A DNA stretch of 10,616 nt from an archaeon (GCA_043806035.1 JAZDHK010000031.1:1-10616), one strand, 5' to 3'. Counted from the first letter of the stretch, positions 1 through 10,564 are shown. The notes: generated from the sequence alone by a model not told the origin. Program-made: numbers and translations.

Positions 1-121
1 TCCCCCCACCCGGATTTGAACCGGGAACACCTCGGTAACGGCTGAGTGCAATTCATCCGATCTCTCAGAGACTGTCGTGCACCGTCTACAGCCGAGTGCT
101 CTACCGTTGAGCTATGAGGGG
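1..121 (-). tRNA. tRNA-Tyr(GTA) with 49-nt intron (37..85) at the canonical 37/38 position
   Basis: Reverse complement reads CCCCTCA TAGCTCAACGGTAGAGCA CTCGG CT GTA G [49 nt] A CCGAG GTGTT CCCGG TTCAAAT CCGGG TGGGGGG A. All four stems pair and the mature length is 72 nt. C1:G72/A73 and the short variable arm are archaeal/eukaryal Tyr identity features. Confidence 0.96.
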
Positions 122-6227: not shown

Positions 6228-6446
6228 TCAGGATTGCACGAGCCCACGGTACATGATGTCGATGTACTTGCCCCAATCACCCTTGTTCCGCACAAGAAAT
6301 CCCTTGATGCCACCCCTAAGAAAATGGATCATCTCCTCATCGACATTGATTACCTTACAATCGCCGATCTCTCGTACAAGTTCCGGAGCGAGCGTTGACT
6401 TCCCCGCACATCTCGGGCCGACGATTGCGAGGATGTCATCAGACAT
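6228..6446 (-). pseudogene. Truncated P-loop kinase (shikimate/nucleotide kinase-like) N-terminal fragment
   Basis: MSDDILAIVGPRCAGKSTLAPEL...INVDEEM gives Walker A plus the next strand and Asp. Only 72 aa long; it ends at TGA directly before the next gene's promoter, leaving no room for the C-terminal half. Confidence 0.7.
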
Positions 6447-6502
6447 AGCCACAAACACGACATTCGACTATTTACGTGTTGTCCTGCAACAAATGTGCGC
6501 AA

Positions 6503-6582
6503 GATTCGAGCTGACGGAACTACCGACGGTGGTATTGCGTCATTTCATGTTTTTTGCTCTATTCTCAACGTCTTTGAACCCA
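6503..6582 (-). repeat. 80-nt structured element, copy 1 (3' of fic)
   Basis: Ungapped 65/80 match to 9418-9497 (counted by hand). Minus strand reads TGGGTTCAAAGAC...CGTCAGCTCGAATC. Confidence 0.92.
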
Positions 6583-6599
6583 GTTTGGCCACCTCCAGA

Positions 6600-6613
6600 A
6601 AAGGTGTCTACAT
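6600..6613 (+). repeat. 14-bp direct repeat AAAGGTGTCTACAT at the fic 3' end
   Basis: Identical to 7534-7547; lies 2 nt beyond the fic stop codon. Confidence 0.88.
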
Positions 6614-6615
6614 AA

Positions 6616-7524
6616 TCACTTTCGTAGACCCCTATACTGTTTCTTGTACTGTGCGCGCAGGAATTTGAGGGTTGGAAGAATGCTGCCTGTCTGGTCAAAT
6701 GCGTGCAGGCGCGAGTAATACTGCTTGCGGTCTGTGAGTCTAACGTTCAACGGGGGATGGTCATGACTGAGTAGCACATAGTTGAGCAGCAGTCTTCCAA
6801 CCCGCCCATTGCCGTCTTGGAACGGATGGATGTTCTCGAACTGGTTGTGCACCAGAGCAGCAAGCAGCAGCGCAGGATATTTCTTTTTATGCTTGTCATA
6901 CCAGCCTACCAATTCTTGAAGAAGTTTCTGGACCTGTTTGTAGGGAGCTCCGTGGTGGATGATATGGCCTTGTGCATCACGGATGACAACGTCCACTGTT
7001 CTGAGCTTGCCGGCAAACGGCTTTGTTCCTTTGAAACAGAGCTCATGCAGCTTCAGAATCATTGGTACAGAGAATGATTCTTTCGTGGTTTTGATGTATG
7101 CGATTGCACCTGCCATGTTGATGGTTTCTTGCTCTTCATCATTTTGAGGAGGTTCCTTCTTCTCAATGAGCGCTTCAACCTCTTTGTACGCGACAGTGGA
7201 TCCTTCGATAGCATTTGTGTTGTACGTGAATTCTTTGGTGAAGCGTTCCCAGTCAACGTTCTGTAAATGCTCTATCTTTAGGTTCTGGTCGTATTTTTTG
7301 TATATCTTAATGTCCTCAGGCGTGAGTTCATAGGCATACGCTGATTTTTCTTTCATCTGCTCCAGTACGTGTAGTTCTGCTTTGATTCTCGCTTTCTGCA
7401 ACGATATCGCATCAAGACCCGACCCAAGATAACGAGAAATCCTCTTTACCTTGCCACCCACCCTGTACGTGTGGACAAGATACTGCTTCCTCACCTTCCC
7501 CTGCTTGCGGATTTCGACGAACAT
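6616..7524 (-). CDS. fic: Fic-domain protein (AMPylase) with an N-terminal basic beta-sheet module
   Basis: Canonical HPFQDGNGRVGR motif, with TNAIEGST at the inhibitory-helix position. Start reassigned to ATG 7524 (MFVEIRK, 302 aa) because a TATA box lies 23-31 nt upstream. Confidence 0.95.
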   Translation of the reverse strand: MFVEIRKQGKVRKQYLVHTYRVGGKVKRISRYLGSGLDAISLQKARIKAELHVLEQMKEKSAYAYELTPEDIKIYKKYDQNLKIEHLQNVDWERFTKEFTYNTNAIEGSTVAYKEVEALIEKKEPPQNDEEQETINMAGAIAYIKTTKESFSVPMILKLHELCFKGTKPFAGKLRTVDVVIRDAQGHIIHHGAPYKQVQKLLQELVGWYDKHKKKYPALLLAALVHNQFENIHPFQDGNGRVGRLLLNYVLLSHDHPPLNVRLTDRKQYYSRLHAFDQTGSILPTLKFLRAQYKKQYRGLRK

Positions 7525-7533
7525 ACAGAGAAT

Positions 7534-7577
7534 AAAGGTGTCTACATTTATAAAATTAGCGATATTTGTAGACACCT
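7534..7577 (-). promoter_or_regulatory. fic promoter: TATA box enclosed by an 11-bp perfect inverted repeat (putative operator)
   Basis: AGGTGTCTACA (7536-7546) and TGTAGACACCT (7567-7577) flank TTTTATAAA (minus strand, 7555-7547). Confidence 0.8.
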
Positions 7578-7590
7578 GCTAATAATTGGA

Positions 7591-7610
7591 TGGGGGTGGG
7601 AGGATTCGAA
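7591..7610 (-). repeat. Duplicated tRNA-Pro 3' end (att-like site)
   Basis: TTCGAATCCTCCCACCCCCA matches the tRNA-Pro 3' end TTCAAATCCTCCCAGCCCCA (10496-10477) at 18/20 in the same orientation. The trailers are also alike (TCCAATTATT vs TCTATTATT). Confidence 0.9.
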
Positions 7611-7617
7611 AAAACAC

Positions 7618-7666
7618 CGAAAACTATATAAATATCTATTTGTTAGTATAGATATCTTTGAGGTGA
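7618..7666 (+). promoter_or_regulatory. Promoter/operator of the toxin-antitoxin operon
   Basis: BRE-like CGAAAA (7618-7623), TATATAAA (7625-7632), perfect inverted repeat ATATCTAT-N8-ATAGATAT (7632-7655), Shine-Dalgarno GAGGTGA (7660-7666). Confidence 0.8.
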
Positions 7667-7670
7667 AAAG

Positions 7671-7933
7671 ATATTCGATGACGATCTGCGCTGGAAAGGG
7701 AAGATGCTCGTCTTCACCTGGCATTTCAAAGAGGAATGGGATTCGCTGCGCAAGCCGCTCGAATTCGTGCTGATTATTCTTGAGAAAGGAGAGCATGTGC
7801 GCGTCGCCAAGAAAGAGAACAAGTATAACGTCTGCTACCCATTCAGAGGCAGACACTTGTGCTTGTCGAACACGAGAACATCATCCTCATCCATATCAAG
7901 CCTACAACCAAGAAATTCGGAGGGAGAAAATGA
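7671..7933 (+). pseudogene. Frameshifted putative type II toxin (DUF4258/RelE-like)
   Basis: The first frame gives (I)FDDDLRWKGKMLVFTWHFKEEW...ILEKGEHVRVAKKENKYNVCYPF. The -1 frame continues ...VEHENIILIHIKPTTKKFGGRK*, and its TGA overlaps the antitoxin ATG (ATGA 7930-7933). The codon after the SD is ATA, not ATG. The family call is by motif resemblance. Confidence 0.65.
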
Positions 7934-8250
7934 AATTCATGAACACCTGCTACAAGTGCGGAACGAACGTGAAACAGGCAAAAATAGTCAAGGAAGGCAT
8001 CACGCTGACGTGCATGAAATGCCCGAAATGCGGCGAAGAATACTACACCTCAAGCGAGCTCCTGCGCTTTGACGTGCTGACGGGCAAGAGAAAACTCGTG
8101 CGCAAGTTCGGGACTCTTGGAGATAGCACCATCCTGCGCATTCCTCCAGAAGTGCTCAAGGATTTCAACATCAAGCCCGAGGACTACGCGCTCTTCGAGA
8201 AGAAAGACGACGGCATCTTCATACGGCCAGTGAGTGCAAAAGAGACCTGA
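7930..8250 (+). CDS. Putative antitoxin: MqsA/YgiT-like zinc ribbon fused to an AbrB/MazE/SpoVT DNA-binding domain
   Basis: 106 aa from ATG 7930 (SD GGAGG upstream). CYKC...CPKCGEEY ribbon, then RKFGTLGDSTILRIPPEVLKDFNIKPED swapped-hairpin motif. Confidence 0.88.
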   Translation: MKFMNTCYKCGTNVKQAKIVKEGITLTCMKCPKCGEEYYTSSELLRFDVLTGKRKLVRKFGTLGDSTILRIPPEVLKDFNIKPEDYALFEKKDDGIFIRPVSAKET

Positions 8251-8630
8251 TGAAAATAGAGAGTGACAAGACAGGACGAAGAACATACAAATTTAGCCAT
8301 TCCACTGCCCAAGGGGGAAACCTCTACGCCCATAAAGTCAAGCAGGGCACTATTGAAAACAAAGAGGGGTTAAAGAATGCGCTGCATGCAGTCTCCGTGA
8401 GATTCAAGCTCATAGATCCAACAGTAAAAGTGTACGACACCATTTTCCTTTTCTTCTTCCATATTCCTAAAGCATTAGCTCCAGCAGAACTCATCGACTC
8501 TATACAGAAAAATACTGATGCTTATGCCGATTGGGATGAGGAGTATTTATTTACTGGAGTGTACGACTTGCAGGAAAAGTACATCAGAAAAGACCTAGAA
8601 CAGTGGGAACTTGACTATGACCAAGGATAA
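8250..8630 (+). CDS. IS200/IS605 TnpA (Y1 HUH)-like protein lacking catalytic residues
   Basis: 126 aa, TGATG-coupled to the antitoxin. Colinear by eye with the TnpA consensus: HS; KVYDTIFLFFFHIP vs EVMPDHVHLLVSIP; LAPAELIDSIQK vs LSPSEIVQRLKG; WDEEYLFTGV vs WSRSYFVSTV; IRKDLEQW vs IKKYIENQ. Confidence 0.7.
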   Translation: MKIESDKTGRRTYKFSHSTAQGGNLYAHKVKQGTIENKEGLKNALHAVSVRFKLIDPTVKVYDTIFLFFFHIPKALAPAELIDSIQKNTDAYADWDEEYLFTGVYDLQEKYIRKDLEQWELDYDQG

Positions 8631-8650
8631 GTCGCCTGAGACGTAGGAAC

Positions 8651-9376
8651 ATGAGAAAAGTGACGTTTGAGCATGAGGGGAAGACATACTCGCTCTTCAT
8701 CCACAACGAGGCCAGAGATGATATGCGCGTCTCGCTCGGCAAGACAGGTGTGCACTTGCGTATCCCGAGCGATATCTCCCGTGACGAATACTTCCGCCAA
8801 GTTATGCATGCGAAGGAGTGGGCGAAACAAAGGATTTCCAATAGCCCGGAGATCCGCGACAAAGGGTGGAAAGAGTATCATTCTGGCGATGCCTTGACTG
8901 TCGGAGACAAGACATACACACTGCAGATCACACAGCGACCAGCAAGAGGCAGTGCCGCACGAATTGTCGGGAGCACTATTGAGCTAAGGCTCTCCTCACA
9001 GGATACTGATGCACAGCGCAGAGAGGCGACGTCAGTACTCTTGAGCAGGCTCATCGGTGGCTCTCGATTGCCTGCATTGCAGCAACGGGTCAAGACACTT
9101 AACGAACAGCACTTCCAGTTCCGGCTTGGCAAGATTAGCTTCAAATACAGCATCTCACGTTGGGGAAGCTGCTCGAAGAGCGGCAATGTCAACCTCTCGA
9201 CCCGGCTGCTCTTCGCTCCCGACGACGTGCTCGACTACGTGTGCATCCACGAGCTTGCCCATCTCAGAGAGCATAATCATTCACCTGCATTCTGGAAGCT
9301 GGTCGAGACAGCCATGCCAGACTACAAAGAGAAGGAGCAGTGGCTCAAGGAGCACGGGGATGCATGCTGGTTTTAG
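8651..9376 (+). CDS. YgjP/DUF45 (SprT-like, M48-related) zinc metallohydrolase
   Basis: 241 aa. SRWGSCS...NVNLSTRL...LDYVCIHELAHLREHNHSPAFWKLV...PDYK signature with HExxH. Confidence 0.93.
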   Translation: MRKVTFEHEGKTYSLFIHNEARDDMRVSLGKTGVHLRIPSDISRDEYFRQVMHAKEWAKQRISNSPEIRDKGWKEYHSGDALTVGDKTYTLQITQRPARGSAARIVGSTIELRLSSQDTDAQRREATSVLLSRLIGGSRLPALQQRVKTLNEQHFQFRLGKISFKYSISRWGSCSKSGNVNLSTRLLFAPDDVLDYVCIHELAHLREHNHSPAFWKLVETAMPDYKEKEQWLKEHGDACWF

Positions 9377-9417
9377 CAAACGTGAGGCTCGGCGCAACAC
9401 AAGCACGAACTAATGAG

Positions 9418-9497
9418 GATTCGAGCCGACGACACTACCGACGATGGCAACGCGTCATCCTCTGTTTTCTGCTCTATGCTCATGGTCTTTGAACCCA
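9418..9497 (-). repeat. 80-nt structured element, copy 2 (3' of the lipoprotein gene)
   Basis: 65/80 identical to 6503-6582. Separated from the TAG stop of 9499..10377 by one nucleotide. Ends in TCGAATCCTC, identical to 7609-7600. Confidence 0.92.
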
Positions 9498-9498
9498 A

Positions 9499-10377
9499 CT
9501 ACACAATGCTCAGAATCTGCCTTTGCACGACAAATGCTCCAGTTTCCTTATCGACTGCAAATGCGGATAGGACGTAGCTCATACGACCAACATACCCGTT
9601 ATTCGTATACATGCCAGGATTTAGTTGTGTATATTCAACAAAGTTGATAGTTATGATGTTGTTATCCTCTTGGATAGTCTCCTGGACGTAATCTCTGTGG
9701 AAGGGCGTGTAGAATAGCTGCTCCAAAAGAGACGCCCGCATGAATTCTGCGGCTTCTTTGACGGATGTAGTTGTGAGTGGTCGGAAGTCCAGCACTCCTG
9801 TCGTGACATTGAATCGCTCTGCAGGCACATCAGCGGTAAGATTCCTGAATATTTGTTGATGACCAATTATTGCCTGATAATCAAGAGAAGATATGTAGCT
9901 GCACTTGATGATGCGCAGGTGATAGTATCTCGTATGGAGATATTCTGGACTGGTTGTATCCTCATATGTGTCAACTGCTTCGAAATACTTTTCTGTTTCA
10001 CTTGTTTCGTGATTGATAAGTCTGAGGTCTGCGCCCATCGTGGCGAGCGAGAACCATTCCTGGGCTTGCGTAGCACTATCCGTGCATAGGAAGGAGGCAG
10101 TGCCATGAGAAGTGGCATTAAGGTAGTTGCTGTTAAAATAGCTCAGAAATGCTCTATCATGATAATCGTCTGACGCATGCAAGACGTCTAAGTACTCAAA
10201 CGAGGAATTCGTCAGGGAATGATCCGTACCATTCAGTTGCGGAAAGGACGGTGGGACAATAGCAGGAGAGATGTTGTTGTTCGAGGATGTTTGTATTGGT
10301 TCGGCTACTGGTTGACAGCTCGCAATAAAGAGAATAACTAGCAGTCCTCCAATCATGAGCATAGTATTGTTCCCCAT
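9499..10377 (-). CDS. Hypothetical secreted protein or lipoprotein
   Basis: 292 aa. Hydrophobic N-terminus ending FIASC, a Pro/Ser/Asn linker, and six N-x-S/T sequons after the Cys. No family recognised. Confidence 0.82.
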   Translation of the reverse strand: MGNNTMLMIGGLLVILFIASCQPVAEPIQTSSNNNISPAIVPPSFPQLNGTDHSLTNSSFEYLDVLHASDDYHDRAFLSYFNSNYLNATSHGTASFLCTDSATQAQEWFSLATMGADLRLINHETSETEKYFEAVDTYEDTTSPEYLHTRYYHLRIIKCSYISSLDYQAIIGHQQIFRNLTADVPAERFNVTTGVLDFRPLTTTSVKEAAEFMRASLLEQLFYTPFHRDYVQETIQEDNNIITINFVEYTQLNPGMYTNNGYVGRMSYVLSAFAVDKETGAFVVQRQILSIV

Positions 10378-10399
10378 AGTAAGCCATATACTCTGTGCA

Positions 10400-10413
10400 A
10401 CATATACTTTTCG
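10400..10413 (-). promoter_or_regulatory. BRE/TATA promoter of the lipoprotein gene
   Basis: CGAAAAG-TATATGT on the minus strand, ending 23 nt upstream of ATG 10377. Confidence 0.6.
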
Positions 10414-10476
10414 TTATCTTCAATTGTGTTGGCAGTCTAGTGCCTACAACATATCACTCACGTCAGAAATAATAGA

Positions 10477-10564
10477 TGGGGCTGGGAGGATTTGAACCCC
10501 CGATCTCTACCATTCTGGCGTTTTGTCCCCAAGGTAGAATCATACCAAGCTAGACCACAGCCCC
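10477..10564 (-). tRNA. tRNA-Pro(GGG) with 14-nt intron (10513..10526) at 37/38
   Basis: GGGGCTG TGGTCTAGCTTGGTATGATT CTACC TT GGG G [ACAAAACGCCAGAA] T GGTAG AGATC GGGGG TTCAAAT CCTCC CAGCCCC A. Bulge-helix-bulge central helix UUGG/CCAG with two 3-nt bulges; mature length 74 nt. Confidence 0.96.

Follow-up and report, generated by a model that had tools for sequence, protein, structure and literature searches.

In the described systems closest to the locus reported here, the tRNA-targeting tyrosine-recombinase elements, insertion takes place in the 3' part of a tRNA gene, which is restored in the process, a 3' fragment of the tRNA is displaced to the far end of the element, and re-use of the site gives arrays whose cargo is accessory or defensive. 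Such archaeal elements and their tandem arrays at a single tRNA are reviewed in PMC6563490 and PMC8371274: the former describes arrays formed by tyrosine-recombinase elements that re-use one site, archaeal attachment (att) sites as short as 8 bp (with a median of 17 bp in Thaumarchaeota) and a smallest cryptic integrated element of 2.6 kb that has an integrase, and PMC9897764 calls the tRNA fragments left by integration pervasive. Here, we analysed a whole contig of 10,616 bp (C31, hereafter the window) from the bin of a DPANN archaeon (G000; 1.50 Mb in 42 contigs, 93.7% complete), on which two single-gene units and a small operon are lined up behind a tRNA-Pro gene. As in the tRNA-targeting elements, the flanking direct repeats derive from the tRNA 3' part and the tRNA is intact; unlike such elements, the units carry no integrase of their own, measure ~1.1-1.8 kb, hold one gene or a small operon and have inner junctions of 9-10 nt of core. 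We consider it probable that this array consists of two, probably three, horizontally acquired insertions made by serial site-specific recombination at the T-loop/3' end of the tRNA.

The cis-mobilizable elements (CIMEs) related to streptococcal integrative and conjugative elements or integrative and mobilizable elements offer a second point of comparison, since they are att-bounded, lack recombination and transfer genes and undergo site-specific accretion beside related elements. CIMEs are bacterial and much larger, and autonomous relatives that share their att have been described. The units of the window are likewise att-flanked and free of recombination or transfer genes, whereas no autonomous element with the same att was found for them in the bin, in 400 other genomes of the order or in IMG/VR. 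Read along the minus strand from the tRNA, the array is made up as follows.

10477..10564, minus strand: tRNA-Pro(GGG) with an intron of ~14 nt, whose 3' end anchors the array (Rfam RF00005, 49.9 bits; ARAGORN with introns allowed; comparison with relatives)
10475..10496, minus strand: junction J0, the T-loop to the tRNA 3' end plus 2 nt, first copy of an att-like direct repeat (repeat search; pattern scan)
9499..10377, minus strand: cargo of unit 1, a predicted lipoprotein of 292 amino acids (aa), an ORFan (open reading frame (ORF); signal peptide and lipobox by reading)
9418..9497, minus strand: el2, one copy of an 80-nt element (repeat search; alignment to the tRNA)
9415..9424, plus strand: junction J1, with GAGGATTCGA as its core of 10 nt, the right-hand one of two direct-repeat copies that bracket block 2 (sequence reading; motif scan)
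7611..9414, plus strand: block 2, an accessory operon (Pfam; tblastn against homologues in the genome G025)
7589..7610, minus strand: junction J2, the 22-nt tRNA-Pro 3' fragment TTCGAATCCTCCCACCCCCATC (repeat search; pattern scan; acceptor-strand comparison)
6616..7524, minus strand: cargo of unit 3, a Fic/SoFic-like protein (Pfam Fic, 3.8e-21, for the ORF taken as 6616-7575; PADLOC SoFic, 7.9e-30, PDC-S04)
6503..6582, minus strand: el1, the other copy of the 80-nt element, which ends in J3 (repeat search; motif scan)
6501..6510: junction J3, the core AAGATTCGAG, at the end of el1 (motif scan)

The tRNA-Pro gene itself is intact. Its Rfam match shows an 18-nt insert in the anticodon region; by default ARAGORN made no tRNA call at this position, and with introns allowed it called a tRNA-Ser(gga) with a 14-nt intron. 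We assigned the gene to Pro(GGG) instead, on account of its UUGGGG loop, its short variable arm and its alignment to the tRNA-Pro(GGG) genes of relatives; introns are frequent in the tRNA genes of this genome. The end of the gene recurs at J2, where 20 of 22 nt are identical to 10475-10496, and an 18-nt pattern of the tRNA tail, allowing up to 3 mismatches, found just the J0 and J2 sites in the window (0.01 expected). The likeness of the ATTATT trailers at tRNA-Pro and J2 is visible in the alignment. Sites of the motif RGATTYGAR number five in the window, all on the plus strand: the T-loop of each of the two tRNAs contains one, and the other three mark the junctions (6502, 7602 and 9417); 0.99 would be expected by chance and five were reached in 1 of 200 shuffles, and the four co-oriented T-loop cores of the array are real and beyond chance. 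Each copy of the 80-nt element follows one of two unrelated genes (el1 the Fic gene, el2 the lipoprotein ORFan), and the two copies are 81% identical (BLAST E 1e-13). An initial annotation of the window had proposed this very architecture, with a tRNA-Pro 3' end, an ATTATT trailer, a gene and the 80-nt element occurring twice around unrelated cargo and with T-loop cores co-oriented on the plus strand at all four junctions, and each of these points was borne out.

Judged from its sequence, the 80-nt element looks, if weakly, like an att-site arm descended from the 3' half of tRNA-Pro rather than like an attC-type site or a small RNA gene. The 26 nt of el2 closest to the core (GGTAG...TCGAATCCTC) align to the 3' half of tRNA-Pro, from the anticodon stem to the T-arm, and an equal or better score was obtained in 28 of 2000 shuffles. 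Folding of el1 and el2 as RNA gave z-scores from -0.42 to -2.64, low in one of the four strand/copy combinations, and folding as single-stranded DNA gave z-scores from -1.51 to +1.29, with no structure common to both copies; Rfam holds no match to the element. We also considered the element as a remnant of integrase coding sequence, read in its plus frame (...LRH... / ...TRH...), and rejected this candidate as unsupported; the frame has no Pfam match. In that frame of el1, the box II region of an integrase encoded on contig C30 gave a tblastn E of 0.15, the best that any of the seven integrases of the genome reached on the contig, and the mismatches between el1 and el2 fall by codon phase as 7, 8 and 1, which is the opposite of coding constraint. 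The lipoprotein frame stays open for ~41 codons past its TAG stop, through el2 (9373-9501), which is probably due to chance since el1 has a stop in that frame.

Block 2 is bracketed by a perfect 10-nt direct repeat of GAGGATTCGA (7600-7609 and 9415-9424), a feature that the initial annotation did not contain. Removal of the block (7611-9414) with one copy of this repeat leaves el2 + TCGAATCCTCCCACCCCCA + TCCAATTATT, in which the 80-nt element runs straight into the full displaced tRNA 3' end and its trailer. With CACCCCC as its acceptor strand, J2 would form mispairs against GGGGCTG, the 5' strand of the tRNA in this genome, and relatives have CAACCCC; because J2 thus fits neither its own tRNA nor those of relatives, we take the fragment to be foreign and to have arrived in incoming DNA.

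According to the explanation that we favour, crossover would take place in the T-loop/3'-end segment of the tRNA in the manner of a tyrosine integrase, and each integration would rebuild the tRNA 3' end and push the former one downstream as a fragment; a foreign tRNA-Pro tail on the incoming DNA would keep the target gene functional, as in tRNA-targeting integrative elements. The 80-nt element would be the att arm next to the core, and the ATTATT trailer the other arm. The Fic and lipoprotein units, which have related arms, would have integrated one after the other, giving an array of tRNA-Pro, lipoprotein gene, el2 with a tRNA tail, Fic gene and el1 with a truncated tail, and block 7611-9414 would have entered at a later stage, within the displaced tRNA fragment that lay between the two units, with duplication of 10 nt of core sequence. 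Crossover at the T-loop/3' end, a regenerated tRNA, a displaced tail, foreign tails and accessory cargo together point to the signature of a tyrosine integrase with re-use of its site.

The strongest new evidence is the recurrence of this layout in relatives. Fic homologues with 62-64% aa identity are found in two other species of the family. At locus L019, in another genus, a tRNA-Glu(CTC) is followed by a gene for a flavodoxin-like protein of 165 aa, a 57-nt element, a Fic gene, a second 57-nt element and a large convergent gene; the 57-nt elements are 88% identical to each other, both have the acceptor strand of tRNA-Glu at their end, and each aligns to the 3' region of tRNA-Glu better than all 2000 shuffles. 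The units of L019 measure 0.6 and 1.0 kb, those of the window ~1.1 and ~1.8 kb, and a synteny comparison within the genus found no orthologue of the flanking giant gene of L019 in 12 other genomes. Locus L018 has an islet of 2.2 kb (a HEXXH-like gene and Fic) between tRNA-Lys and a 22-nt copy of the tRNA-Lys 3' end, and locus L022 an islet of 2.7 kb with Fic between tRNA-Lys and a 35-nt copy of the segment from its anticodon arm to its T-loop. Among the islet ORFs scanned in the window, L018, L019 and L022, none matched an integrase family. Arms from different loci show no sequence relationship to one another, and each is derived from the local tRNA; a 9-nt match beside the core, GTCGTCGGC, between el2 and one of the L019 elements was set aside as not significant (121 of 3000 shuffles).

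A credible tRNA lies within 2 kb of the Fic gene in 7 of 18 loci fetched from genomes and metagenomes, and many of the others lie on contigs shorter than 2.6 kb. Elsewhere, Fic adjoins a TraG/VirB4-like ATPase or a MazE-PIN pair, and such varied neighbours mark it as a travelling accessory gene. In the window, Fic is flanked by a palindromic motif, GGTGwCwACA ... TGTrGwCACC, at 7536-7577 and ~6600-6635 (inverted repeats I3 and I4), of which the upstream copy encloses the TATA box. Corresponding palindromes flank Fic at L031 (4946-4988/5893-5935), L026 (2162-2186/3089-3113) and L030 (5928-5959/6029-6060), and since the arrangement persists in Fic homologues with as little as 45% identity, the motifs may serve as paired operators or for recombination.

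Short direct copies of tRNA 3' ends, here called echoes, are also present behind other tRNAs. In this genome, 5 of 38 tRNAs have a direct copy of their own last 22 nt (score of at least 20) within 160 nt downstream, compared with 0/38 for the reverse complement, 0/34 upstream and 0/38 when the query was shuffled; in the 6-contig genome G005, which belongs to the same family, an echo lies behind 5 of 30 tRNAs (controls: reverse complement 0/30, upstream 1/15, shuffled query 0/30). These counts leave out tRNAs with less than 160 nt of downstream sequence, those with another tRNA there, and duplicates that arise where contig ends overlap. Echoes measure 11-17 nt, start in the T-loop and are separated from the tRNA by hairpin-rich spacers of 38-117 nt (G000 C1:47205-47420, C39:139-272, C39:4399-4556, C33:82879-83067 and C7:24733-24952; G005 L060, L061, L063 and L069), and in most of the examples read, the tRNA and the echo are each followed by a T-run. 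Within one genus, an echo is present behind tRNA-Gly(TCC) in two of six species, where it lies at +76 and at +128 and the spacers are unrelated, and is absent from the other four. The window array looks like a loaded form of this common and changeable feature.

At locus L058 (G005:C4:145000-151090), an ORF of the LAGLIDADG type (LAGLIDGDGH) lies between tRNA-Arg(TCG) and a 23-nt echo 723 nt behind it, and the sequence that follows the echo is a repeat of the one that follows the tRNA. One tRNA of G000 (tRNA-Ala by sequence reading, tRNA-Ser according to ARAGORN) is followed by a spacer whose modules of 20-28 nt, CTGACCTCAGnTAGCACGGA and a GGGCTGCAAGCCC hairpin, recur in three tRNA introns (Glu, Gln and Lys) and immediately after a tRNA-Trp 3' copy (G000 C1:47313-47405, C41:2887-2906, C13:4319-4357, C40:1683-1702 and C24:2743-2770); the three introns are also related to one another. 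This hints at a small family of elements that land both inside and behind tRNA genes. A model for Caldiarchaeum, as outlined in PMC3293823, has a 1.8-kb recombinase-encoding element disrupt tRNA genes upon integration and scatter their fragments, and links this to the gain of tRNA introns. The spacer modules shared with tRNA introns would likewise tie such events to introns, whereas the units of the window encode no recombinase.

Other features of the window are the following.

7704 onwards, plus strand: toxin-like ORF of block 2, which loses frame near 7855 relative to its G025 homologue
7930-8250, plus strand: zinc-ribbon and AbrB/MazE-like antitoxin, in block 2
8250-8630, plus strand: conserved protein of 126 aa, in block 2
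8651-9376, plus strand: YgjP-like metallopeptidase, in block 2
6228..6458, minus strand: gene fragment for 76 aa with a P-loop, just past J3 (weak AAA_14 and AAA_33 matches below the curated cut-offs)
1..121, minus strand: tRNA-Tyr with an intron of ~49 nt (Rfam, 53.3 bits; ARAGORN with introns allowed; the contig starts exactly at the tRNA 3' end)

The cargo is accessory in nature. The lipoprotein of unit 1 belongs to no Pfam family and is present in 1 of 41 genomes searched, namely G000 itself. Its gene has a TATA-like sequence, AAAAGTATATG, ~28 nt upstream, which would be its promoter, and as TATA-like boxes can be read 25-30 nt before the start codons of both the Fic and the lipoprotein gene, each appears to have a promoter of its own. 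Block 2 had been annotated as an operon of a toxin-antitoxin (TA) pair, a TnpA-like protein and YgjP; the AbrB/MazE-like antitoxin and the YgjP-like protein stood, and the toxin-like partner (7704-7930) looks frameshifted near 7855, past which it continues in another frame, so that it is a pseudogene unless the low depth led to an error in the assembly. The identification of ORF 8250-8630 as a TnpA-like, Y1-type (IS200/IS605) transposase found no support, since it has no Pfam match and hhalign of its family against a Y1_Tnp alignment gave a probability of 1.9%; a search of PDB sequences yielded a best E of 0.48, and there was no usable match in the ESM Atlas. This family counts 59 homologues with 54-81% identity and uniform length and is patchily distributed (2 of 41 relatives); where their sources are named, these are Woesearchaeota or Nanoarchaeota. 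Its gene adjoins the YgjP gene in the window and lies near a type I restriction specificity gene in G033. The 76-aa P-loop fragment is probably a gene remnant.

The initial annotation had further described the units as small and without a recombinase, and indeed the seven PF00589 matches in G000 all lie on contigs other than C31; these seven also supply the co-occurring tyrosine recombinases that it had suggested looking for. A classical case is present in the same genome, where tRNA-Trp on C30 has an adjacent integrase and C41 carries an exact 25-nt copy of the tRNA 3' end. It is unusual that the units of the window are so small and have no integrase. They may be deletion remnants of larger, integrase-bearing elements of which selection kept one useful gene and chance left the short arms in place, or they may never have had an integrase; we slightly favour remnants, and an island in decay would accord with the P-loop fragment and with the frameshift in the toxin-like ORF.

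The label "integron-like", which the initial annotation had applied to the array, did not hold. Archaeal integrons have reportedly been described by Ghaly et al. in 2022. The array resembles integrons in its serial single-gene units of one orientation, each ending in a recognisable element, and differs from them in that it has no adjacent intI and no attC-type foldable palindrome in both copies, its units carry TATA-like boxes that may be promoters of their own whereas integron cassettes mostly lack one and are transcribed from a shared promoter, block 2 lies on the opposite strand, and here a tRNA gene anchors the array and the units end in a tRNA-derived element. What remains of the overall interpretation are the tRNA-derived junctions, the small accessory units and their recurrence at other tRNAs. 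Casposons also target tRNA 3' ends, for example tRNA-Pro in Aciduliprofundum, and make duplications of ~14-15 bp. PF01867 (Cas1) gave 0 matches in G000, and the ends of the units in the window have no terminal inverted repeats. Tandem casposon insertions are mentioned in PMC6563490.

Several observations weigh against serial integration as we propose it. J1 and J3 retain just 9-10 nt of core, without the acceptor strand expected of a simple attR; the L022 copy has no tRNA 3' end, which a simple attR would not predict either; and the repeats at L018 and at the tRNA-Arg of G005 run past the tRNA end into the flank. These odd repeats could stem from later insertions into displaced tails, as with block 2, or from att sites captured from closely related loci. 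The Fic module, moreover, is separated from its arms by 12-25 nt on one side and 5-15 nt on the other, both in the window and in L019, in two genera and at two tRNAs, and a gene that fills nearly all the space between the arms is tidier than random decay predicts. Neither an integrase nor a remnant of one was found in the window, where the E of 0.15 on el1, in a frame without Pfam match, was the best tblastn result. The initial annotation had stated that its proposal would be refuted if the 80-nt element had no further copies, and none was found by blastn-short and nhmmer across the whole bin, including beside any of its integrases, by BLAST in 40 relatives, with a 23-base pattern (up to 3 mismatches) in the 400 other genomes of the order or with a 25-base pattern in IMG/VR, which goes part of the way towards that refutation. 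Finally, population data, consisting of Logan contigs of 3 runs from one study, contain no excision joint at the cores, no circle and no empty site, at a depth of ~2-8 on the window that is too low to judge. The single joint they do contain (10509 to 10545; one contig, side 21) falls inside tRNA-Pro and probably comes from another organism's tRNA.

An alternative that we regard as possible though unlikely is that the units are active, non-autonomous cassettes, each made of trailer, promoter, one gene and arm, which a recombinase encoded elsewhere excises and inserts at tRNA T-loops much as with cis-mobilizable or satellite elements (the model of the initial annotation less its integron label), the empty form being the short spacer plus echo found behind many tRNAs. 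The pairs of units in the window and in L019, each sharing both arms around unrelated cargo, would be expected of such cassettes, as would the narrow margins of the Fic module, the commonness of echoes with 38-128-nt spacers that differ between species, and the seven tyrosine recombinases encoded elsewhere in the genome. Active cassettes sit poorly with an 80-nt arm that has no further copy in the genomes and viral sequences searched, with arms so unrelated between loci that no shared recognition sequence is evident, and with a difference of 19% between el1 and el2, which speaks for old events or differing sources; the low-depth Logan contigs, too, show none of the joints, circles or empty sites that movement would leave. 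We think it very unlikely that the locus arose in place, by duplication of its flanks and swapping of the genes between them through homologous recombination without a site-specific recombinase. The two pairs of repeats are almost equally spaced (2915 and 2886 nt) and, at L018 and the tRNA-Arg of G005, repeats continue beyond the tRNA, but the two 2.9-kb spans share nothing by BLAST beyond the two short repeats, the tRNA fragment at J2 is of foreign type, and the same pattern is seen at many tRNAs, always on their 3' side.

Scarcely more credence, and indeed somewhat less, is due to the idea that the 80-nt element was kept for a function of its own, as a terminator or small RNA of both genes, with its tRNA-like cores incidental. 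Both copies do have a short hairpin and T-run on the plus strand (in el2 a terminator-like site that a scan placed at 9443-9459, in el1 a comparable one read by eye), but the Fic and lipoprotein genes are encoded on the other strand, no fold beats shuffles in both copies, Rfam offers no match, and there are two copies only. Least probable of all, in our judgement, is an assembly artefact, in which a chimeric contig would have been joined at tRNA-like repeats. Besides the low depth, what speaks for this is that contig ends coincide with tRNA 3' ends and forks of the assembly graph. Both ends of C31 share overlaps of exactly 141 nt with other contigs of the bin: the left one (C11/C31) begins at the 3' end of the intron-bearing tRNA-Tyr and the right one (C31/C4) 1 base past the 3' end of the tRNA at 10477-10564. 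With tRNA-Cys (C32/C37), 3 of the 21 end overlaps in the bin fork exactly at tRNA 3' ends, which suggests that the strains in the sample differ directly behind these tRNAs and also counts in favour of serial integration; the third branch of the fork is absent from the bin, and on which side the fork lies is not provable from contigs. The inner repeats of the array (22 nt, and 80 nt at 81% identity) are, however, far shorter than the 141-nt assembly overlaps, an independently built Logan contig of 849 nt bridges 7290-8138 across J2, and GC content is even along the window.

A broader and more speculative extension, to which we give only a small chance, is that woesearchaeal tRNAs host a lineage-wide set of integrase-less micro-elements, inserted at T-loops in trans, that are either empty (a hairpin-rich spacer of 40-130 nt plus echo) or loaded and able to stack, and that share modules with tRNA introns. 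The cargo of a loaded form would then be just one gene for defence or another accessory role, for example SoFic, and the shared modules would tie tRNA integration to intron gain. We found no description of tRNA echoes or of single-gene, tRNA-anchored units in DPANN archaea in the open-access full-text literature. The locus is a miniature, integrase-less form of a known kind of locus, with an echo pattern that is possibly general and undescribed in the lineage.

How DPANN archaea with their tiny genomes gain genes is little known. If single-gene units do stack behind tRNAs without an integrase of their own, they would offer these genomes a compact way to acquire defence genes, among them the SoFic-like Fic that is found at four different tRNAs, and such units would offer a handle on the frequent tRNA introns and 3'-end echoes of these genomes. 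If the units are decayed remnants and nothing more, the locus would still clearly document how a streamlined genome reduces integrated elements to a single useful gene.

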